A stretch of 64,000 bases of DNA from Escherichia phage PSD2002: the sequence record OK335775.1, one strand, 5' to 3'. Within the stretch, counting starts at the first letter, position 1; each line of letters begins with the position of its first letter. Made by a program: the position numbers and the translations under genes. Of this stretch, positions 14,342-63,679 are shown one piece after another. The notes below the pieces were generated by a model. That model did not search any database, had not been told where the DNA came from, and worked only from the letters and a program-made list of their open reading frames with translations.

Positions 14342-15034
<693 letters not shown>

Positions 15035-15041
15035 GAACAAA

Positions 15042-15371
15042 ATGAAAACATATAACGAATTTGTACAAACTGAAGCAATTAATGAAGTAGCCATCCCTAA
15101 ACCGGCTAAAGCTGACGGTACTGAGTACTACCATATTGAAACATCTTTTGATGCAGCTTCAGATATGGCTAACGGGCTTGGTGATTTCATCCGTCAAGCT
15201 AAGTCCGACCTGGCTAAATTTACAAAGACCCTTGATAAAGAGCAAAAGAAACCTTTCTCGGATCTGGCTAAAAAACTGGACGCGTTAAATGACAAGGTCT
15301 TTAAAGAAGTTTACCACGGTATGATTGGTCTTACCCGTGAATTCAATGCTGAAGTTAAAAAACTTCCCTAA
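15042..15371 (+). CDS. internal protein (IPI-position) with capsid-targeting N-terminus
   Basis: Starts MKTYNEFVQTE; T4 internal proteins begin MKTYQEFIAE (capsid targeting sequence); located after 57B as ipI is in T4. Confidence 0.65.
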   Translation: MKTYNEFVQTEAINEVAIPKPAKADGTEYYHIETSFDAASDMANGLGDFIRQAKSDLAKFTKTLDKEQKKPFSDLAKKLDALNDKVFKEVYHGMIGLTREFNAEVKKLP

Positions 15372-15380
15372 GTACAGATA

Positions 15381-15402
15381 AGGAGCCACAAAGCTCCTTT
15401 TT
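15381..15402 (+). terminator. rho-independent terminator
   Basis: AGGAGC-CACAAA-GCTCCT hairpin followed by TTTTT. Confidence 0.6.
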
Positions 15403-15419
15403 GTATCTAAACAAAAGGT

Positions 15420-15450
15420 GTTTACTTTCCTGGATAGCCGTGATACTATA
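15420..15450 (+). promoter_or_regulatory. T4-type early promoter cassette
   Basis: GTTTAC ... TGATACTATAGCCCTATCAA; one of at least 15 near-identical copies. Confidence 0.6.
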
Positions 15451-15486
15451 GCCCTATCAAAACAAACTAACCAAACGGAAATCAAA

Positions 15487-15711
15487 ATGAAAACTTATCA
15501 AGAATTTATTACCGAAGCTAAAAGACATGAAGATGAACTGCCAATTGTTACAAAAACCTTTGATGGCACACTGGCTGATTTTAAAAAAGTCCCTAGTGAT
15601 AAGCTTGCTAAATTGACTGGCTCTATCAATGAAAAAGGTGGCAAGGTCACATTTTCTGCTCAAGGCACTGCCAATCTTAAAAAACTTTTGAAAGCCGCAG
15701 GCGTAGAATAA
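15487..15711 (+). CDS. internal-protein-like protein
   Basis: Starts MKTYQEFITEAK; SD-like GGAAA upstream. Confidence 0.6.
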   Translation: MKTYQEFITEAKRHEDELPIVTKTFDGTLADFKKVPSDKLAKLTGSINEKGGKVTFSAQGTANLKKLLKAAGVE

Positions 15712-15712
15712 A

Positions 15713-15985
15713 ATGAAATCATACCAAGAATTTATCGCTGAATCTATTCTTAATGAAGAAGTAAAAATTAACAAATCTGTTAAGACCATGATTGATAATA
15801 TAAATCATCTCTATAACATCGATTTGACTAATCACGTAACTTTAGGCAATAAGCGAAACTTTTTTGTATTTGATACTTCAGAACTTGACCAGAATCAAAT
15901 TAACAATATTGAACGTTTTGCTAATGAAAAAGGGCTGCGCCACGAGACAGCCGGTTATAAAAAGTATGCAATTTATTTAAAATAA
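15713..15985 (+). CDS. internal-protein-like protein
   Basis: Starts MKSYQEFIAES. Confidence 0.55.
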   Translation: MKSYQEFIAESILNEEVKINKSVKTMIDNINHLYNIDLTNHVTLGNKRNFFVFDTSELDQNQINNIERFANEKGLRHETAGYKKYAIYLK

Positions 15986-15987
15986 TT

Positions 15988-16018
15988 GTTTACAACGGGC
16001 TTTAGCCGTGATACTATA
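15988..16018 (+). promoter_or_regulatory. T4-type early promoter cassette
   Basis: GTTTAC ... TGATACTATAGCCCTATCAAAACAAA, then conserved leader GAGTGAATGGAGAATAAAATG. Confidence 0.6.
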
Positions 16019-16053
16019 GCCCTATCAAAACAAATGAGTGAATGGAGAATAAA

Positions 16054-16239
16054 ATGAAACGTTGTGAATTAATTAGAAATGTTACTGCACTGGCCGCTGT
16101 TACTGCTTTTGGCTTTAGTATGTTTGCAGGATTCATGCTCGATATGCTTTCAACTTCCGAGAATATAATCTCTTTAGTAGTGGCATTTTTAATTGGTTCA
16201 ATTTCTTTTGTTATGGATAAAATCTCTAAAGGTGAGTAA
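16054..16239 (+). CDS. small membrane protein (61 aa)
   Basis: ATG after GGAGA; hydrophobic core VTALAAVTAFGFSMFAGFML and LVVAFLIGSISFV. Confidence 0.5.
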   Translation: MKRCELIRNVTALAAVTAFGFSMFAGFMLDMLSTSENIISLVVAFLIGSISFVMDKISKGE

Positions 16240-16240
16240 A

Positions 16241-16621
16241 ATGTATAAAGTGTATGCAGATTATCAGGCAAATCCATCTGAAAAACCAGATTGTCAAATT
16301 GGGTGGGCACACGACACCCTGCTTAAGGCGGTAGATAAAGCCCAGGAATTAGGGTATAGTTATGTGGATATTGTTCAACCCAATGGGACCGTTATTACAC
16401 TTGAAGAATTCAAGAATATCAAAACAAACTTTTTGCTCTTTGCGGGTGATAACTATTACCCTCGTGGCGGTTATGCCGACTTAATCGCAAAGGCCGCTAC
16501 TGAAGATGAACTGCGCGATATCATTAAAGAAAATGAGAATAACCCTCTTTACGGTTCTAATCGTTTTGACTGGTGGCAGATTGTTAATGCCAATACCCAT
16601 ACTATTGTAGACGAGGGTTAA
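16241..16621 (+). CDS. hypothetical protein
   Basis: ORF with AAAGGTGAG SD; start immediately after the stop of the upstream gene. Confidence 0.5.
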   Translation: MYKVYADYQANPSEKPDCQIGWAHDTLLKAVDKAQELGYSYVDIVQPNGTVITLEEFKNIKTNFLLFAGDNYYPRGGYADLIAKAATEDELRDIIKENENNPLYGSNRFDWWQIVNANTHTIVDEG

Positions 16622-17358: not shown

Positions 17359-17435
17359 GGCCCTGTAGCTCAATGGTTAGCAGCAGTCCCCTCATAAGGG
17401 AAAGGTTACCAGTTCAAATCTGGTCCGGGTCACCA
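17359..17435 (+). tRNA. tRNA, anticodon CAT (Met/Ile-lysidine type)
   Basis: Acceptor stem GGCCCTG/CCGGGTC, T-arm ACCAG-TTCAAAT-CTGGT, anticodon loop CTCATAA, encoded CCA. Confidence 0.75.
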
Positions 17436-17440
17436 ACTAT

Positions 17441-17515
17441 GTCCCGCTGGTGTAATGGATAGCATACGATCCTTCTAAGTTTGCGGTCCTGGTTCGATCC
17501 CAGGGCGGGATACCA
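17441..17515 (+). tRNA. tRNA-Arg (anticodon TCT)
   Basis: Acceptor GTCCCGC/GCGGGAT, T-arm CCTGG-TTCGATC-CCAGG, anticodon loop CTTCTAA, encoded CCA. Confidence 0.8.
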
Positions 17516-17896: not shown

Positions 17897-17927
17897 AGGC
17901 CCTTCCGAAAGGTTGGGCTTTTTTTGT
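17897..17927 (+). terminator. terminator-like hairpin with T-tract (repeat copy 1)
   Basis: AGGCCCTTCCGAAAGGTTGGGC followed by TTTTTTT; a near-identical copy lies at 18541. Confidence 0.5.
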
Positions 17928-17934
17928 ATAAATA
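17927..17934 (+). promoter_or_regulatory. late promoter (TATAAATA)
   Basis: TATAAATA about 27 nt upstream of the ATG at 17961. Confidence 0.5.
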
Positions 17935-17960: not shown

Positions 17961-18425
17961 ATGAAAACTTACAATGAATTTTTGACTGAACAATCTAGTT
18001 CAGATGTAAAAGCCGCTGCTATTGCAGCAATTCAAGCAGGTAAATATTCTTACAAAGACGCCTCTGATGAAGAACGTTTCCGTTTTATTAAAGATTTTAA
18101 AGCCGAAGGTTTTACTAATGCTAATACTGTTAGCCGAGTTTTTAAAAGCCTAGCTGCATCAGGTGAATTGTTCCAGAAAGCTACAGGTAAAGCACCTGCG
18201 TCAAAAGCGGACCCTAAAGCCGCTCAAGAAAAAAATATCGCCAAAGGAATTATTTCTAAGTATGAAGCAATTCTTAAAGAGCTTTTAGTAATCAAAACAG
18301 AAGGCCAGAAACTGGCACGAGCACATAGCTTCAAAGATAATCCACATGCTCACGACTTAGAGTATGTTGAAGATATTCAGAAAATCATCAAAGACCGTAT
18401 CTGGTCTGCTAAACAAATCAAATAA
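17961..18425 (+). CDS. internal-protein-like protein
   Basis: Starts MKTYNEFLTEQ; 154 aa. Confidence 0.6.
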   Translation: MKTYNEFLTEQSSSDVKAAAIAAIQAGKYSYKDASDEERFRFIKDFKAEGFTNANTVSRVFKSLAASGELFQKATGKAPASKADPKAAQEKNIAKGIISKYEAILKELLVIKTEGQKLARAHSFKDNPHAHDLEYVEDIQKIIKDRIWSAKQIK

Positions 18426-18428
18426 CGA

Positions 18429-18449
18429 AAGCCCCAGATGGGGCTTTTT
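18429..18449 (+). terminator. rho-independent terminator
   Basis: GCCCC-AGAT-GGGGC followed by TTTTT. Confidence 0.65.
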
Positions 18450-18540
18450 GGTTAACTTAGAGAAATATATGAAACTTTTAAAATAAAGCTATGTTAGCCT
18501 TCCACATAAACCCATTCCGGTTCTACAAGAACTGATTCTA

Positions 18541-18568
18541 GGCCCTTCCGAAAGGTTGGGCCTTTTTT
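18541..18568 (+). terminator. terminator-like hairpin with T-tract (repeat copy 2)
   Basis: GGCCCTTCCGAAAGGTTGGGCC followed by TTTTTT. Confidence 0.5.
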
Positions 18569-18591
18569 GTTTCTAAAAAGTTTAAAAAGTT

Positions 18592-18620
18592 GTTTACACC
18601 TCCTTTAAACATGATACTAT
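18592..18620 (+). promoter_or_regulatory. T4-type early promoter cassette
   Basis: GTTTAC ... TGATACTATAGACCTATCAAAACAAC. Confidence 0.6.
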
Positions 18621-18655
18621 AGACCTATCAAAACAACAGAGTGAAGGAGAGTAAA

Positions 18656-23868: not shown

Positions 23869-23897
23869 GTGTACAAGGTCTATAGGTGTGATACTAT
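23869..23897 (+). promoter_or_regulatory. T4-type early promoter cassette (variant -35 GTGTAC)
   Basis: GTGTAC ... TGATACTATAGACCTATCAAAACAAC plus conserved leader GAGTGAAATGGAGAATAAAATG. Confidence 0.55.
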
Positions 23898-23934
23898 AGA
23901 CCTATCAAAACAACAGAGTGAAATGGAGAATAAA

Positions 23935-26110: not shown

Positions 26111-26137
26111 TATAAATACCTCCTATACTCAGGAGGT
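26111..26137 (+). promoter_or_regulatory. late promoter TATAAATA plus SD-sequestering hairpin upstream of gene e
   Basis: TATAAATA at 26111-26118; ACCTCCT (26118-26124) pairs with AGGAGGT (26131-26137), which contains the SD. Confidence 0.6.
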
Positions 26138-26140
26138 ATT

Positions 26141-26635
26141 ATGGATATTTTTGATATGTTACGTCAAGACGAAGGTCTTGATTTAAATCTTTATAAAGAC
26201 ACTGAAGGTTATTGGACTATTGGCATTGGCCAATTGATTACTAAGAACCCTTCTAAAGATGTTGCTCGTGCTGAACTTGATAAGCTTATGGGTCGAGTTT
26301 GTAATGGTCGTATTACTATGGCTGAAGCTGAACAACTCTTTAACCGATCGGTTGAAAATGCTCGTAGAGCTATTCTGCGTAATCCTAAATTGAAACCTGT
26401 TTATGATGTACTGGACGAAGTTCGTCGTTGTGCTTTAATTAACATGGTCTTCCAAATGGGTGAAGCAGGCGTAGCAGGGTTCACCAACTCTTTACGTATG
26501 CTCCAACAGAAACGTTGGAACGATGCGGCAGTTAACCTGGCTCAATCCCGTTGGTATAAACAAACTCCTAATCGTGCTAAGCGCGTGATTTCAACATTTA
26601 AAACAGGTACTTGGAAAGCATATGAAAACTTATAA
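26141..26635 (+). CDS. e: lysozyme (endolysin) E
   Basis: 164 aa; closely resembles T4 lysozyme, including E11, D20, T26 and [41 protein letters not shown]. Confidence 0.95.
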
Positions 26636-27779: not shown

Positions 27780-28196
27780 ATGACTCGTATCAACCTTACC
27801 TTAGTATCTGAATTGGCTGACCAACACTTAATGGCTGAATATCGTGAATTACCACGTGTTTTCGGTGCAGTTCGTAAGCATGTTGCTAATGGTAAACGTG
27901 TCCGTGATTTCAAAATCAGTCCTACTTTTATCCTTGGTACAGGTCATGTTACATTCTTTTACGATAAGCTTGAATTTTTACGTAAGCGACAAATTGAGCT
28001 TATAGCCGAATGTTTAAAACGTGGTTTTAATATCAAGGATACTACGGTCCAGGACATTAGTGATATTCCTCAGGAATTCCGTGGCGACTATACTCCACAC
28101 GAAGCTTCTATTGCTATATCTCAGGCCCGTTTGGACGAAAAAATTGCACAACGCCCTACCTGGTACAAACATTATGGTAAGGCGATTTATGCATAA
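27780..28196 (+). CDS. denV: endonuclease V (pyrimidine dimer DNA glycosylase)
   Basis: 138 aa; closely resembles T4 DenV from the N-terminal [31 protein letters not shown] onward. Confidence 0.95.
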
Positions 28197-28337: not shown

Positions 28338-28883
28338 ATGAAAACGTTTTTAACCGGTAGTTATCTATCCCTGATGAATGCTTTTGCAAACCATTCTGAT
28401 GCTAGAGTAGAACACATTTGTAATAGTGGGTTTTATGTACCCGATTCACAAACCCTGTTTAAAGAATGCTGCACCTTAAAACTTGATGGTGGGCGCCAAT
28501 CCGGTAAAACTAAAGCAGTATCCATTTTTGCGTCTGATTGGTTAGCTGATGGCGGCTCTATTGTTATTTTGTCTAATTGCGCCGCGTATGCTAATGTTTC
28601 GGCTACTGCAATCCGAAAGGAATATTTTAATAACCATACAGAAAGTATTAAGTATCGTTTGTACACTGATTCTGTTCGTAGTTTTATTGGTAATACTGCA
28701 TGCAAATTCCGTGGATTATCGCTTTCACGTGTTCTGTATATAATTGATGAGCCTGTTAAAACACCCGATATGGATAAGATTTATGATGCCCATATAAAGG
28801 CGGTGCAACATTGCTGTCATGCATCATGTGTCGAAACCAATCAAACTGCACGTCCTCTGTTCTTTGTGATAGGAATGCAATGA
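28338..28883 (+). CDS. P-loop NTPase-like protein
   Basis: Walker A-like GGRQSGKT and Walker B-like LYIIDEP. Confidence 0.5.
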   Translation: MKTFLTGSYLSLMNAFANHSDARVEHICNSGFYVPDSQTLFKECCTLKLDGGRQSGKTKAVSIFASDWLADGGSIVILSNCAAYANVSATAIRKEYFNNHTESIKYRLYTDSVRSFIGNTACKFRGLSLSRVLYIIDEPVKTPDMDKIYDAHIKAVQHCCHASCVETNQTARPLFFVIGMQ

Positions 28884-56374: not shown

Positions 56375-56393
56375 GGGACTTCGGTCCCTTTTT
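56375..56393 (+). terminator. UUCG hairpin with T-tract upstream of gene 43
   Basis: GGGAC-TTCG-GTCCC followed by TTTTT. Confidence 0.55.
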
Positions 56394-56451
56394 GGAGTAT
56401 AATAATTCATCAACAAACAAAAGACAATCACTCGTCTATAAAGGAAATGAA

Positions 56452-58159
56452 ATGCAAGAATTCTATTTGACAGTCGAACAAATCGGTGATAATATTCTCG
56501 AACGTTACATCGATAAAAATGGTAACGAACGTAGTCGTGAAGTTCCATACAAGCCTACAATGTTTATGCATGCTAATCCAGAGCAAGCCGTAAAATACAT
56601 TGATATCTATGGTAAGGGTTGTGTTAAGAAAGAATTCGATTCTATGCGTGATGCATCCCAATGGATGAAACGTATGGATGATATGGGTCTCGAAGCCCTG
56701 GGTATGGACGACTATAAATTAGCCTATTTGTCTGATACCTATCGTAAAGAAATCAAATATGATTCTTCTAAGATTCGTATTGCTAACTTCGACATCGAGG
56801 TAACATCTCCTGATGGATTCCCTGAACCAGCTCAGGCTAAACATCCTATCGATGCCATTACCCACTACGACTCGATTGACGATAAATTCTATGTATTCGA
56901 CCTTTTAGTTTCGCCTTATGGTACTGTTGAAGAGTGGTCGATTAAAATCGCTGAGAAACTCCAAGACGAAGGTGGTGACGAAGTTCCACAGGAAATCATT
57001 GACAAAATCGTTTATCTTCCGTTTAATTCTGAAGAAGAAATGATGCTTGAGTACTTGAATTTCTGGCAACAGAAAACTCCTGTGATTTTGACTGGATGGA
57101 ACGTTGAGTCGTTTGACGTACCGTACGTTTATAACCGTCTGAAAAATCTGTTCGGTGAGAACACTGCTAAGCGATTAAGCCCACATCGTAAAACTCGCGT
57201 TAAAGTTATTGAGAACATGTACGGTGCTCGTGAAATCATTACATTGTTCGGTATCTCTGTTCTGGATTATATCGACCTTTATAAAAAATTCAGCTTCACC
57301 AACCAGCCTTCTTATTCTCTGGATTATGTTTCTGAATATGAATTGAAAGTGGGTAAGTTGAAATATGATGGTCCAATCTCTAAGTTACGTGAGACGAACC
57401 ACCAACGATATATTTCCTATAACATTATCGACGTATATCGTGTTGTGCAAATTGATATGAAACGCCAGTTCATTCTTCTGAGTTTGGACATGGGTTATTA
57501 TGCCAAGATGCAGATTCAGTCGGTGTTCAGTCCAATTAAGACTTGGGACGCTATTATCTTTAATAGCCTTAAAGAACAAGGCAAGGTAATTCCACAAGCT
57601 CGTTCGCACGTGGTCCAACCTTATCCTGGCGCTTTCGTTAAGGAACCGATTCCTAACGCTTACAAATACGTAATGAGTTTCGACCTTACATCTCTGTACC
57701 CGAGTATCATTCGACAAGTGAATATAAGCCCAGAGACCATCGCAGGGACATTCGCTAACGCACCGATACATGAATATATTGCTGGAACTGCTCAGCGTCC
57801 TAGCGACACCTACAGTTGCTCTCCTAACGGCATGATGTATTATAAAGACCGTGAAGGTGTGATTCCTACAGAAATCACCAAGGTATTCTTGCAGCGTAAA
57901 GAACATAAAGGTTATATGCTTGCAGCTCAACGTAATGGTGAGTTAATTAAAGAAGCATTGGAAAATCCTAATCCCTCAGTTGATAGTCCACTGGATATCG
58001 ATTATCGTTTTGACTTCTCCGACGAAATCAAAGCCCAGATTAAAGCACTGTCAGCGCCTTCTTTAAGAGAAATGTTGAAGAAAGCCGAGCTCACTGAAGT
58101 TGCAGGTAACACTGCTCAGATTAACCGTAAGTTGCTTATCAACAGCCTGTATGGTGCGT
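56452..58159 (+). CDS. 43: DNA polymerase gp43, exon 1 (N-terminal exonuclease domain and start of polymerase domain)
   Basis: Starts MQEFYLTVEQIGDNILERYIDKNGNE after AAAGGAAA; ends ...NRKLLINSLYGAL; the unspliced frame hits TAA at 58168-58170. Confidence 0.85.
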
Positions 58160-58389
58160 TAACCAAATAACTCGGCGCACTTTAAACTATGTGAATTCAG
58201 GGAACATCTCTAGTAGACAATCCTGAGCGAAGCCTCTATGAGGAACGTGCAACGACTATCCGAAAGGAGTACACCCAAGTGGGTGGAAGCGCATAGCATC
58301 GAAAGATGATGATATAGTCTGCTCTGCATGGCGACATGCAGCTGGATATAATTCCGGGCTGAGCTTAACGACCTCAGTTGAACACCGTG
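58160..58389 (+). ncRNA. putative self-splicing group I intron (ORF-less, 230 nt) in gene 43
   Basis: Exon GUGCGU pairs with intron GCGCAC (58175-58180) with U.G at the splice site; GACUA (58254) and UAGUC (58315) form a P7-like pairing; terminal G at 58389; splicing restores GAL-GNVWFRYYD. Confidence 0.65.
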
Positions 58390-59393
58390 TGGGTAACGTC
58401 TGGTTCCGCTACTATGATTTGCGTAATGCAACTGCAATCACACTGTTCGGTCAAATGGCCCTCCAATGGATTGAACGTAAGGTTAACGAATATCTGAATA
58501 GCGTGTGTAAAACTGAAAACCAGAAGTTCGTGCTCTATGGTGATACTGACTCCATTTATGTTAAGGCAGATGCAATCATCAATAAAGTAGGCGAAGATAA
58601 ATTTCGTGACACTAACCACTGGGTCGACTTCTTAGATAAATTTGCACGTGAACGTATGGAACCAGCTATTGATGCAGGCTTCCGTGAGATGTGCGAGTAT
58701 ATGAACAACAAACAGCACTTGATGTTCATGGACCGAGAAGCTATCGCAGGTCCTCCACTTGGTTCTAAAGGTCTTGGTGGATTCTGGACAGGCAAGAAAC
58801 GTTATGCACTGAACGTTTGGGACATGGAAGGTACTCGTTATGCCGAACCGCACTTGAAAATCATGGGCCTTGAAACTCAGAAATCAAGTACACCTAAAGC
58901 AGTTCAGAAAGCTCTGAAGGAATGTATCCGTCGTATGCTTCAGGAAGGCGAGGCATCTTTGCAAGAATATTTCAAACAGTTTAATAAGGAATTTAACGAA
59001 CTCAACTATGTAAGCATTGCAGCAGTATCCAGTGCTAACAACATCGAGAAATATAATGAAGGTGGATTCCCGGGTTCTAAATGTCCATACCACATCAAAG
59101 GTTGCTTAGCTTACATGCGTGCTTCTGCAGGTGATTTGACTATGCCTCGTATCGTTGATGGTGAAAAGGTATATGTACTGCCACTTAAAGAAGGCAACCC
59201 GTTTGGTGAAGCTTGTATGGCATGGCCGTCAGGTATTGAACTTCCGGTTCAGATTCGTGACCAAGTCCTCCGTTGGATGGACTACAACGTACTGTTCCAA
59301 AAGACCTTTATCAAGCCTCTGACCGGTTTTACTGAGTCTGCTAAAATCGACTACGAGAAAAAAGCAACATTATTTGATATGTTCGACTTTTAA
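58390..59393 (+). CDS. 43: DNA polymerase gp43, exon 2 (C-terminal polymerase domain)
   Basis: GNVWFRYYDLRNATAI ... YGDTDSIYV (polymerase motif C) ... SLFDMFDF; no SD upstream of the in-frame GTG. Confidence 0.85.
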
Positions 59394-60334: not shown

Positions 60335-60394
60335 GCAATACCAATTTATTAAAAATAGTGTATAATGTACCTACATTCACTTGAGGAACAGATA

Positions 60395-62068
60395 ATGAAA
60401 AAGGTTGTTATTTTAGGCGCGGGTCTTGGCTCACGGTTGTATCCAATTACCAACGAAATCCCGAAGGTACTGGTTAACTACAAACAACATACTGTATTAA
60501 AACATTTGTATGATTTGTATAGTAACCAATCAGATGAAATTATTCTGGTTATTCACAGCAAATTTAACGACCTCGTTAAAGGCTATATTAAATCCATTAA
60601 CATGATTAATAGTGATAAGCCTAAATTCACTATTCGTAACGTAGATGTGGCCAATGGTTCTGCTCATGCTATTGATTGCATTGCTGAAGATATCATTGGG
60701 CACAACGTCTTGTTTAACTGGTGTGATATTATTCCTGAAGGGCATAAAGTTGAGTGGGATAACGACTACTGTTATACCTATGGGACTGACTGTCGTTTTA
60801 CATTTGAAGAGCCATACTTGCGCGAAATTGGCACAGGTGGTGGTGTAGTTGGTTTGTATCAGGTTGCTAATTGGGCAGGTTTCAACCGTTCTAATTATGG
60901 CGAAGACCTGGCCGACAACCTGGATTCGATGGTCCATTTGACCGAACGTAAGCTGGACTTTGTGGTTGATGTCGGTGACAAATTGAAACTGGCTAAGGCC
61001 CATGAAGATTCTGAAATTAACCGTGAATTTAATAAATTAGAGTTCACTGAGAATCTGGCTATTAAAGTACCAACTAACGAATTGGGTAAAGAAATCCAAT
61101 CTAAAGAAATCAATTGGTATAATTCTATTGATTCTGAATTTGTTCCGAGCATTGTAGACTTTGCTCCAGGTGAATTCATTAAAATGGAACGTATCTTTGG
61201 TCGTACCATGGCAGATGCCTACCGGTTTATGGCTAAAGAAACTAAAGTCCTCATGGTTTATAAGGTCATTAGTGCATTACGTTCATTCGGTGGAACTATT
61301 GATAACCCATCTGATGAGCAATGGTATTCTGATGTTAAGAAAGAAGTACTAGATAAGGTCCTTATTCGTAATGCATCAATTTCTGGTCTGATTGAAGGCT
61401 TTGCTCCACAAGGTATTACCCATGTTAACGACTTCAAGGTAGGCGACCCTGAAAAACTTCTTCGCCATGCACTAGAAATTCTGTCTGAACATAAAGAACC
61501 GTACCAACTTATTCATGGTGACCCGCACTACAGTAATATTATGCTGTCGGACGAAGGTGATATTAAAATCATCGACCCACGTGGTTATTTTGGTAATAGT
61601 TCTAAAGGCCCTGCGATTTATGATGAAGCTAAGGTGCTTTATTCTATCGATGGTTATGACAAATTTAACTCCGACCCTCTATGGGGTGGCTTAACTCGTA
61701 ACGGAACTCGAGTATTCGTTGATATTGAAAAGGTTATGCCTTTAGATGATATTCCAATGTGTACATTTAAGCACAAGCTCTGGATTGCCGTTATCTGGAT
61801 GGCATTAGCAGGTTACTTTAAGAATAATCCTCTGAAAGCTCTAGGTGCTTATTACAACGGTCTATACCAACTGAGTGTGCTGCTGAAGCGGCATCCTCGT
61901 AAGCGTAAGCTTATTACAGGTGAATTTGTCGATGAAGTTCGTGACCCTATCACGGCTCAAATTATCACTCGTTGTCCTGATAAGTGGGTTTTGCTTGACC
62001 AGGAAACTGGTGTAAAATATAAACCTACAGGTTCTACTGAACTCCACAAACAATGGAAGAAAATTTAA
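60395..62068 (+). CDS. bifunctional sugar-1-phosphate nucleotidyltransferase / anomeric sugar kinase (APH-ChoK fold)
   Basis: N-terminal ILGAGLGSRLYPITNEIPKVLV (sugar nucleotidyltransferase G-x-G-x-R signature); C-terminal LIHGDPHYSNIML ... IKIIDPRG (aminoglycoside/choline kinase-type catalytic loop). Confidence 0.65.
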   Translation: MKKVVILGAGLGSRLYPITNEIPKVLVNYKQHTVLKHLYDLYSNQSDEIILVIHSKFNDLVKGYIKSINMINSDKPKFTIRNVDVANGSAHAIDCIAEDIIGHNVLFNWCDIIPEGHKVEWDNDYCYTYGTDCRFTFEEPYLREIGTGGGVVGLYQVANWAGFNRSNYGEDLADNLDSMVHLTERKLDFVVDVGDKLKLAKAHEDSEINREFNKLEFTENLAIKVPTNELGKEIQSKEINWYNSIDSEFVPSIVDFAPGEFIKMERIFGRTMADAYRFMAKETKVLMVYKVISALRSFGGTIDNPSDEQWYSDVKKEVLDKVLIRNASISGLIEGFAPQGITHVNDFKVGDPEKLLRHALEILSEHKEPYQLIHGDPHYSNIMLSDEGDIKIIDPRGYFGNSSKGPAIYDEAKVLYSIDGYDKFNSDPLWGGLTRNGTRVFVDIEKVMPLDDIPMCTFKHKLWIAVIWMALAGYFKNNPLKALGAYYNGLYQLSVLLKRHPRKRKLITGEFVDEVRDPITAQIITRCPDKWVLLDQETGVKYKPTGSTELHKQWKKI

Positions 62069-62451
62069 TGTCGCATCGAGTAGAAAATAAGCCCCATTTA
62101 TGTTTTGACATCGATAATACAATCACGGTTTGGAACCACGACCGTGATTATGAAAACTTTAAACCGGACACCGAAATGGTGTCCATGATTAATAAGCTTT
62201 ATGATGAAGGCCATGAGATTACATTGTTCACTGCTCGTGGTATGACTTCATGTGGCCCTGGTCGAATCTTGGTTGAAGTAGTTCCTGCATTAGTTAAGAA
62301 CCTTGAAAAGATTGGTTTGAAATACCATAATTTGCTTACACATAAGCCGAGTTATACTTTTATCATCGATGACCGAGCAATCCGTCCTGACCACTTTAAA
62401 GAAATGGTTCGTGAAGGAACTCTTGAAACCTATAAGGCATATCATCCGTGA
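62068..62451 (+). CDS. HAD-superfamily phosphatase
   Basis: Motif I LCFDIDNTIT (DxDxT); start overlaps the upstream stop (TAATG). Confidence 0.6.
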   Translation: MSHRVENKPHLCFDIDNTITVWNHDRDYENFKPDTEMVSMINKLYDEGHEITLFTARGMTSCGPGRILVEVVPALVKNLEKIGLKYHNLLTHKPSYTFIIDDRAIRPDHFKEMVREGTLETYKAYHP

Positions 62452-62984
62452 AACCAAAAATCATTATTATCGACGGCCCGGATAATTCCGGGAAGTCTGC
62501 TTTAATTGAATCACTTTTATCTGATAAGAAATATCGTCTTATCGATTTCCCTAAAAAGATTAATGGCAAATGCATTTCATTAGGGACCGATAATGACAAG
62601 GCTTTAGTCGAGACGTTGTATAAGTTTTTAGACCCTAATTTCGTTTACATCCTTGACCGTGGTTATCCAAGTAATATTGTTTACTCAGGATTCCTTCGTG
62701 GTGAAATGGACCCTTATGTGGAACTAGCAGATTGGATTGATTTCAAAAAAGAATTCAATATCATTGAGATTATTTTAACCCGTAATCCGTTGGATGAAGA
62801 CTTTGAAGATGACCTTATTAAATTAACCAAAGATGAGTTCAATCTAACTATCCGGCAATATGAAACATGTTTTGAAAACGTGTTTAAAATCTTAAATCAC
62901 GACGGCCATAATAACTTGCTTAACGTCGATATGGTAGAATTAAAACGTCTGAATGAATATATTGAAAATAAGGTGAATAAATGA
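62448..62984 (+). CDS. P-loop (deoxy)nucleotide/nucleoside kinase-like protein
   Basis: IIIIDGPDNSGKSALIESL resembles thymidylate/dNMP kinase P-loops; GTG start overlapping the upstream stop. Confidence 0.5.
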   Translation: MKPKIIIIDGPDNSGKSALIESLLSDKKYRLIDFPKKINGKCISLGTDNDKALVETLYKFLDPNFVYILDRGYPSNIVYSGFLRGEMDPYVELADWIDFKKEFNIIEIILTRNPLDEDFEDDLIKLTKDEFNLTIRQYETCFENVFKILNHDGHNNLLNVDMVELKRLNEYIENKVNK

Positions 62985-63679
62985 AACACATTACCGCTGT
63001 TAGTTTTGAAAACGCGTTTAAGCAAATGAACGAAGAAATCCTGGAAGCTCCACAGTTTGCAGTTGATTCTCGTATCGGCCGTTGTTATGAAATTGGTTCT
63101 GCTTCGGTAGAAGTACTGGATGCAAGCACCTATAAATTCACCGACCCTCGTATTAATCGTATCAACTACGATTATGCCGAATCTTTCTGGAAATTTATGA
63201 TTTCTGGTGGTACTGACGCCGCCGAAGCATTTAAGGAATACCCTAATGTTGCTAAGTTCATTGATAAGCCGAAAAGTGACGTATTGCCTGCAAACTTCAA
63301 CACTTTCTATGGACCTCGAATTGTGGCCCAACTCCCAGCCCTACTTAAAGAGCTTAAAGAGAAGCCTAACTCGCGAAGAGTTGTGTTCCAAATTCTCCAA
63401 GAACAAGACCAAGCCCTCCTTGATTCTGACGAATCCCTAGAATATCCATGTACCGATTCGGTAACATATTATATTCGTGATGGACGTCTGTACGCACATA
63501 CTCATATGCGTTCACAGAACTGTGCTATCGTTATGCAGCTGGATTTCTATCTGCAGGGTAAACTGATGGCCTTTATTGCTGAACAGTGTGGTGTTGGTCT
63601 GGGTACATATTCCCATACTATGGTTAGTGCACACGTATTTGAACGTGATTTTGACTACGTTCGAGGATTCCTGAAATGA
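62981..63679 (+). CDS. 42: dCMP hydroxymethylase-like (thymidylate synthase fold) gp42 homolog
   Basis: 232 aa; EYPCTDSVTYYIRDGRLYAHTHMRSQN resembles the catalytic-Cys region of T4 gp42 / thymidylate synthase as I recall it; position downstream of imm. Confidence 0.6.
   Translation: MKHITAVSFENAFKQMNEEILEAPQFAVDSRIGRCYEIGSASVEVLDASTYKFTDPRINRINYDYAESFWKFMISGGTDAAEAFKEYPNVAKFIDKPKSDVLPANFNTFYGPRIVAQLPALLKELKEKPNSRRVVFQILQEQDQALLDSDESLEYPCTDSVTYYIRDGRLYAHTHMRSQNCAIVMQLDFYLQGKLMAFIAEQCGVGLGTYSHTMVSAHVFERDFDYVRGFLK

Follow-up and report, generated by a model that had tools for sequence, protein, structure and literature searches.

Six open reading frames (ORFs) in a 64,000-nucleotide (nt) stretch of Escherichia phage PSD2002 (record OK335775.1; the whole stretch is hereafter called the window) open with a near-identical peptide of the type MKTYxEF, the leader of the phage T4 internal proteins, and continue into unrelated bodies. 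We consider it likely that all six encode internal proteins of the T4 type, which would be packaged into the head, cut by the prohead protease gp21, injected to counter host defences, and shuffled between phages as cassettes. We infer packaging, cleavage, injection and every target, in the case of the IPIII orthologue among the six by orthology. The genome that the window samples is that of a T4-like coliphage of the genus Dhakavirus (JS98/QL01 group), with vB_EcoM-E33 (98.5%) and QL01 (97.7%) as its closest DNA matches, and the records of phage PSD2002 hold proteins identical to three of its ORFs. It is syntenic with T4, running through gene 3, gene 1, 57A, 57B, the ipI position, trna.4/.3/.2 and the tRNAs, and then from e.8 onward through nudE, e and the ipIII/ipII position to denV.

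Leader, predicted cleavage site and cargo

When all six frames of the window were searched with a regular expression for ORFs starting with MK[ST]Y.EF, there were six matches and no more, all on the + strand (15042, 15487, 15713, 17961, 26622 and 27103; here genes A, B and C, candidates D and E, and the IPIII orthologue), the same coordinates at which the initial annotation had pointed out a shared N-terminus. No such ORF arose in 200 mononucleotide shuffles of the window. The bodies had been called unrelated, and this is borne out: with the first 12 residues removed, none of the pairings within the six reached significance in an all-against-all BLASTP comparison in a nine-sequence database (best E = 0.019, chance for 36 comparisons). 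A putative homology of protein A to IPIII (E about 0.02) was likewise dropped as being at chance level for the number of comparisons. The sole real match between bodies is that of the 27103 product to T4 IPIII (87% identity), and the comparison with T4 IPI, IPII and IPIII is therefore positive for this protein and negative, beyond the leader, for the other five.

In T4 the first ten residues of IPIII suffice for encapsidation, even of foreign proteins; amber-suppression mutagenesis identified residues 4 (Tyr) and 7 (Phe) as targeting determinants and residues 8 and 10 as processing determinants, gp21 cutting after L/I-x-E (PMC9026906). M1, K2, T/S3, Y4, E6 and F7 are present in all six window ORFs, and the gp21 site at I/L8-x-Glu10 in five (ITE, IAE, LTE, IAE, IAE; gene A excepted). 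The leader of B is MKTYQEFITE followed by A, that of C is MKSYQEFIAE followed by SILNE, that of D is MKTYNEFLTE followed by Q, and that of the IPIII orthologue is MKTYKEFIAE followed by A; candidate E has IAE at 8-10 and then N. The leader of protein A (MKTYNEFVQTEAINE) has V-Q-T-E in place of I/L-x-E at residues 8-10, but I-N-E at residues 13-15. Its homologue in the Citrobacter phage CF1 lacks the 'TEA' insert and reads MKTYSEFMQINE followed by V, with INE at 10-12. A second [LI]NE at 13-15 is found in 6 of 63 metagenomic sequences of the leader class, against a per-position background of 0.5%, and (I/L)NE at 13-15 recurs in Ip9 (the family of gene C) and in RB-type homologues of candidate D. 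T4 IPI itself has a longer variant leader of 19 residues, cut after I-T-E. Given the CF1 sequence, the enrichment at 13-15 and the IPI precedent, it is probable that protein A would be cut by gp21 after Glu15.

The DNA upstream of the start codons, including the ribosome-binding regions, shows no alignable conservation among the six genes, while the motif codons vary synonymously (ACA/ACT/ACG, TAT/TAC, GAA/GAG) and non-synonymous variation is confined to the tolerated residues 3, 5 and 9, so selection acts on the leader peptide. Homologues of candidates D and E keep the leader (Tyr4, Phe7, I/L-x-E) at about 40-77% identity across genera, a retention that indicates purifying selection.

For four of the six proteins the matching PHROG family bears an internal head or virion protein annotation (Table 1). 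Pfam and NCBIfam scans of all six gave nothing above the curated cut-offs, and PDB sequence searches with the cargos gave weak matches only. The predicted mature forms (6.8-20.7 kDa, isoelectric point (pI) 8.0-9.6, 10-17% Lys) resemble T4 IPI, IPII and IPIII (8.0-20.4 kDa, pI 9.0-9.7, 13-16% Lys); individual values are 10.5 kDa and pI 8.1 for A, 6.8 kDa and pI 9.6 for B, and 15.9 kDa and pI 9.5 for D. Two classical T4 loci house five of the six genes: ipI, which follows 57B, and ipIII/ipII, which extends from e to denV. With Tyr4 and Phe7 in all six, the PHROG assignments, the IPIII orthologue and this placement, the capsid-targeted internal-protein reading of the initial annotation is supported. 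The genes for the gp21 protease and the gp22 scaffold lie outside the window; QL01, about 98% identical in an aligned 4.2-kb region, has the gp20-gp67-gp68-gp21-gp22-gp23 head module in T4 order, annotated as portal, gp67, gp68, head maturation protease, scaffold and major head protein.

Table 1. Internal-protein genes, candidates and flanking elements in the window
Feature	Position	Strand	Evidence and context
Gene 57B (context)	14579..15034	+	Landmark of the classical ipI locus; syntenic in T4 (57B-ipI) and QL01
Internal-protein gene A, 109 residues	15042..15371	+	phrog_7857 'internal virion protein', 1.4e-24
Intrinsic-terminator-like hairpin closing cassette A	15380..15399	+	Terminator scan; identical hairpin after the E33 gene
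Early-promoter-like element, copy 1	15420..15474	+	GTTTAC, 18 nt, TG-n-TACTAT, leader; junction of cassette A and Ip8-Ip9
Internal-protein gene B, 'Ip8' family, 74 residues	15487..15711	+	phrog_8765 'internal virion protein', 2e-27
Internal-protein gene C, 'Ip9' family, 90 residues	15713..15985	+	phrog_7673 'internal head protein', 6.5e-56
Early-promoter-like element, copy 2	15988..16042	+	5' of trna.4; right boundary of the Ip8-Ip9 cassette
Hairpin and T4 late promoter TATAAATA	17897..17934 (promoter 17927-17934)	+	26 nt before the start codon of candidate D
Internal-protein candidate D, 154 residues	17961..18425	+	phrog_2280, function unknown; between tRNA-Arg and e.8
Hairpins, right boundary of cassette D	18428..18570	+	About 18428-18447, after the stop of candidate D; 18540-18570
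Gene e, lysozyme (context)	26141..26635	+	Late promoter TATAAATA at 26111
Internal-protein candidate E, 132 residues	26622..27020	+	phrog_15461, function unknown; ipIII/ipII locus
IPIII (Ip3) orthologue, 198 residues	27103..27699	+	87% to T4 IPIII, full length; phrog_5341, 6.6e-115
denV (context)	27780..28196	+	Right boundary of the ipIII/ipII locus

Cassette organisation of the three loci

Gene A starts 7 nt past the stop codon of 57B and has a terminator-like hairpin at its end. Its family is rare, with 8 records in 6 phages among 50,697 and 2 clusters among 5.8 billion proteins, its homologues always lie directly after 57B, and RefSeq labels it internal virion protein in CF1 and IME523; it is a rare cassette common to five genera of T4-like phages. 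The families of genes B and C bear the names Ip8 and Ip9 in QL01, VR5, IME08 and others. Gene B, for which the ORF is open back to a GTG at 15418 and relatives annotate the ATG at 15487, belongs to a family present in 107 phage records and is annotated Ip8 in QL01 and VR5, and gene C is called Ip9 or internal head protein in relatives.

The initial annotation had seen the three genes after 57B as tandem copies. They are not copies of one gene: duplication is ruled out by the unrelated bodies and by the arrangement in the two nearest relatives. In E33, 57B is followed by gene A, a terminator with a promoter, and trna.4 (A only); in QL01 it is followed by a promoter, Ip8, Ip9, another promoter and trna.4 (B and C only); the window is the union of both (A, B and C). 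It tracks E33 through ...GATACTATAGCCCTATCAAAACAAA and then becomes the QL01 Ip8 leader (CTAACCAAACGG...), which places the crossover inside the shared segment GATACTATAG-N-CCTATCAAAACAAA. The 27-nt core of this junction recurs exactly after Ip9, the promoter repeats at 15432-15474 and 16000-16042 sharing it at 15440 and 16008. As read from these alignments, the trio arose by cassette accretion, as a recombinant union of two alternative cassettes. In the exchange between PeSL (promoter-early stem-loop) elements known from T4-type phages, crossovers fall in the interval from the -10 box to the ribosome-binding site (PMC2839356), and by analogy the trio junction matches this kind of exchange.

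The set as a whole is twice that of T4. It had been described as an expanded family, yet six is not unusual for the genus, QL01 also having six, in a partly different set, and IME281 at least six leader-pattern matches among the matches listed. A seventh leader-bearing protein, gp112 (99 residues), is encoded in QL01 after denV; at this place the window carries a 181-residue ORF unrelated to it (28338-28883, + strand). The Klebsiella phage ValerieMcCarty03 has a homologue of this ORF under the label 'putative IpIII internal head protein', which looks like a mis-annotation because the protein has neither a leader nor similarity to IPIII. Tandem arrays are also found elsewhere: the 4.9-kb IMG/VR contig 3300009515_000105 (2597-3044) has three consecutive ORFs of 65-82 residues, each starting MKTY(N/Q)EFL, whose bodies cluster neither with each other nor with any ORF among the matches listed, and is another such array, from an uncultured phage.

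Candidate D lies at a third locus, a position conserved in RB18, whose homologue has the same hairpin-plus-TATAAATA arrangement upstream. The hairpin at 18540-18570 is a second copy of that at 17897-17927, and these repeats bracket the gene; the early-promoter repeat GATACTATAGNCCTATCAAAACAA turns up again at 18611 and 23888 (segments 18603-18645 and 23888-23914). Because of these bracketing hairpins and additional promoter copies the region appears to hold several potential PeSL-type recombination sites. The AlphaFold2 model of the protein is all-helical, with a predicted local distance difference test (pLDDT) score of 73, and Foldseek found nothing with E <= 0.001 in the PDB for this model or that of candidate E. 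The neighbouring tRNA cluster (17359-17515) has two genes only (Met-CAT, Arg-TCT), against eight plus rnaC and rnaD in T4, and the 445 nt between tRNA-Arg and candidate D contain no ORF longer than 46 residues. A 94-residue metagenomic protein is a chimera of a Trna.3-like ORF (16193-16621) and the last 30 residues of the candidate D family (18330-18425), which implies, on the evidence of this one sequence, a natural deletion of about 1.7 kb in some relative, apparently removing the tRNAs and most of the gene of this family.

In the ipIII/ipII locus the start of candidate E is overlapped by the 3' end of gene e. Its family is found in 49 phage records, always beside e. A family alignment shows a further L-N-E at residues 32-34 (L32 and E34 invariant, N33 in more than 90%), also kept in short homologues that lack residues 11-30; gp21 could cut here a second time, in which case the mature protein would start at Asn35. 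Residues 1-36 are disordered in the AlphaFold2 model, and the alpha/beta core is of low confidence (mean pLDDT 57). A match to the small domain of M.HhaI (E = 0.011) was lost with the family profile, and an equally weak flagellin match of that profile was, like it, treated as chance. The IPIII orthologue that follows has a 5' region homologous to that of T4 ipIII. Early-type promoters (GTTTAC, 18 nt, TG-n-TACTAT or TAGTAT) stand 5' of this gene and of Ip8, with Ip9 directly behind the latter.

The cargo of gene C shows that leader and body can part company. A leaderless version is a 72-residue stand-alone protein (MNKATASV...) of the siphophage EC3-1 (44 kb), with 52% identity, encoded by an ORF that is split by the terminal repeat of the record and sits among small genes beside replication genes; other leaderless representatives were also found. 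The same domain lies near the C-terminus of Kuttervirus-type proteins of 861-964 residues (36% identity, pairwise E 5e-12). In Salmonella phage allotria the Kuttervirus protein with this domain has about 964 residues (2-2755 of the stretch compared) and is encoded next to putative structural genes. Since the domain occurs both leaderless in a siphophage and inside Kuttervirus-type proteins, the leader is, to judge from these sequences, a separable delivery tag, here attached to a domain that other phages employ leaderless. Among the matches listed in an IMG/VR pattern scan, MKTYxEF[LI]xE precedes dozens of cargo clusters with no relation to one another; the scan includes chance matches and illustrates cargo diversity and counts per genome rather than providing a census.

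Proposed anti-defence function and competing explanations

T-even internal proteins are regarded as diverse injected defence inhibitors with only the leader in common (PMC3012670). T4 Ip1, Ip2 and Ip3 each inhibit a distinct GmrSD, with no cross-protection, and many more ip genes, known by their signal sequence, are still uncharacterised (Silas et al. 2025; PMC12373910). The varied set of injected effectors foreseen in the initial annotation agrees with this established view of the class (Repoila 1994, as cited in PMC3012670 and PMC12373910). By the T4 scheme each window protein would be made with an N-terminal capsid targeting sequence (MKTYxEF-I/L-x-E) that ties it to the gp22 scaffolding core during prohead assembly; gp21 would then cleave after Glu10 (after Glu15 in protein A), leaving a small, basic, lysine-rich mature protein free in the head among the DNA. 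This would enter with the DNA at the next infection and act before any phage gene is expressed. The repertoire would be built and reshuffled as cassettes, through recombination between the flanking repeated promoter and terminator elements.

By analogy with T4 Ip3, the 27103 product most likely inhibits a modification-dependent (type IV) restriction enzyme of the GmrS/GmrSD kind, and by orthology it probably blocks an ECOR17-like GmrS1/GmrSD2 system. The other five cargos would, on the same analogy, most likely neutralise other such nuclease variants or other immediate-early defences; we infer an anti-defence role for them from class membership, rapid turnover and modular cargos. The DNA to be protected is probably of a suitable kind. 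A probable hypermodification cluster at 60365-63679 comprises a 567-residue protein with NTP-transferase and aminoglycoside-kinase-like parts (RB69p052-like), two small ORFs and a thymidylate-synthase-family protein (gp42-like) that is probably a dCMP hydroxymethylase, and it resembles genes linked to arabinosyl-hydroxymethylcytosine (arabinosyl-hmC) in RB69 (PMC8056088). Because of the gp42-like and RB69p052-like genes, the phage DNA probably contains hmC with a sugar modification, a substrate of type IV restriction. We would offer with considerable reserve the narrower proposal that candidates D, whose family occurs in more than 500 sequenced Tevenvirinae genomes, and E are new injected effectors with targets other than the GmrSD variants inhibited by Ip1, Ip2 and Ip3, and that gene A is a recently spread counter-defence cassette; the targets of D and E might then be, for instance, nucleases specific for the arabinose-type hmC that the lineage probably has, or a non-restriction defence.

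Several observations weigh against the internal-protein reading. No cargo resembles any characterised anti-restriction protein in sequence or fold in the searches run, and an anti-type IV role for the five proteins other than the IPIII orthologue would be drawn purely by analogy. We found no proteomic or N-terminal data for the six or their close homologues, T4 IPIII excepted, and our literature search found no virion proteome of a Dhakavirus. Virion mass spectrometry of a Jiaodavirus (a Klebsiella phage) did detect two leader-bearing proteins encoded next to e; these are different leader-bearing proteins, and we set this proteome aside as evidence on the candidate E family. Gene A is without the canonical I/L-x-E at residues 8-10. 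Immediately 5' of four genes a canonical late promoter is missing, Ip8 (with Ip9) and IPIII having early-type promoters instead, a point offset by the same early-promoter arrangement at T4 ipI, ipII and ipIII. Candidate D is outside the two classical ip loci, and for the families of D (511 phage records) and E all the names inspected, those of about 100 named cluster members among them, read simply 'hypothetical protein'. Finally, a part in head assembly has been reported for IPIII as well (PMC9026906).

A competing view is that the proteins are packaged but serve mainly the virion, as basic counter-ions, DNA condensers or scaffold-core accessories and not as defence inhibitors. The basic, lysine-rich nature of all the predicted mature forms would suit such a role, as would the contacts of T4 internal-protein lysines with DNA phosphates (PMC3012670) and the slower head assembly and polyheads of T4 IPIII mutants (PMC9026906). 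We nevertheless consider it unlikely: T4 lacking all three internal proteins is viable (PMC9026906), specific anti-GmrSD functions are now known for each of the three (PMC12373910), cargo diversity and presence or absence between phages about 98% identical (aligned region) fit an arms race better, and the Ip9 domain is found leaderless in a siphophage among small genes beside replication genes. A structural or DNA-condensing role is better seen as a partial alternative, especially for IPIII. That some of the proteins, most plausibly D and E, are cytoplasmic, their leader-like N-terminus a relic of cassette recombination, unpackaged and unprocessed, is more improbable still. Besides the annotation and position already mentioned, it can appeal to the residue after Glu10, which in these two is Q or N and not the usual A or S; yet their leader is kept in homologues to about 40-70% identity across genera, pointing to purifying selection, the late promoter of D is conserved, E overlaps the late gene e within the ipIII/ipII locus, and in T4 the first ten residues alone package foreign proteins (PMC9026906).

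The shared N-terminus might also be a nucleotide element, a translation-initiation region or recombination hotspot encoding no functional peptide. About 21 nt (ATGAAAACNTAYNNNGAATTT) are indeed similar among the genes, and short homologies can drive T4 recombination (PMC2839356). The initial annotation had itself named conservation confined to the start-region nucleotides as fatal to its reading, and this scenario fails on the unalignable upstream DNA and the motif differences at synonymous positions, with Y4, E6 and F7 invariant. The mapped recombination junction, moreover, lies in the promoter, outside the leader-coding sequence, and the targeting role of the leader is experimentally established in T4 (PMC9026906). 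We give this explanation hardly any weight, and prefer to regard the six as internal proteins delivered by a common leader peptide.

Apart from these genes, the window contains a group I intron (58139-58341, + strand; Rfam RF00028, 75.9 bits, E = 2e-19) in the DNA polymerase gene 43 (56392-59393), splitting it between ...NSLYGAL and GNVWFRYYD... into ORFs 56392-58170 and 58389-59393. The QL01 polymerase gene is uninterrupted (2712 nt).

Relation to known systems

The gene set is an ordinary member of a well-described class, and its description has modest annotation value and leaves the understanding of the system unchanged. What is new is the probable internal-protein identity of two widespread 'hypothetical' families, one with a third locus and a late promoter, the rare cassette of gene A in five genera, and the mapping of the recombination junction that accounts for the trio behind 57B. 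Internal proteins act before phage gene expression, each leader-bearing cargo is a candidate specific anti-defence protein, and each uncharacterised cargo is a probe for the defence system it targets. E33, QL01 and the window phage, near-identical and with different subsets, form a natural set for testing cargos against defences, and such a comparison is relevant to predicting the host range of T4-like phages used in therapy.

The closest counterpart among the known proteins is T4 IPIII, which shares with the 27103 product a nearly identical leader (MKTYQEFIAE in T4, MKTYKEFIAE here), the e-denV locus and a homologous upstream region, and which, as Ip3, inhibits the GmrS1/GmrSD2 system of ECOR17 (PMC12373910). 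The window protein has six extra residues inserted near residues 27-32 and differs by 13% substitutions, and because Ip-GmrSD pairs are so specific its target specificity could differ from that of T4 Ip3. Its gene also follows candidate E and not e directly, and no ipII lies behind it. T4 IPI*/IPII (Ip1 and Ip2) embody the same delivery logic, a gp21-removed leader on a small basic protein that is injected, and occupy the same two hyperplastic loci as window genes, whereas the five non-IPIII cargos have no detectable sequence similarity to them. The numbered Ip families (Repoila et al. 1994; GenBank records of JS98-like phages) already include genes B (Ip8) and C (Ip9), while the families of D and E have no Ip name in any record inspected.

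The cassettes have the hallmarks of PeSL elements (Arbiol et al. 2010; Comeau et al. 2014), with repeated stem-loop and early-promoter boundaries and a crossover between the -10 box and the ribosome-binding site; judged by sequence, the window shows flanking repeats, a hairpin and presence/absence polymorphism with its junction in the repeat. The cassette of candidate D departs from them in having a late and not an early promoter. P1 DarA/DarB and the polyvalent proteins (Iyer et al. 2017) are similarly carried in the capsid, delivered with the DNA and able to pre-empt host nucleases, but their packaging signals and architectures differ from the T4-type system, in which many small single-domain proteins each bear their own cleavable tag of 10-19 residues.

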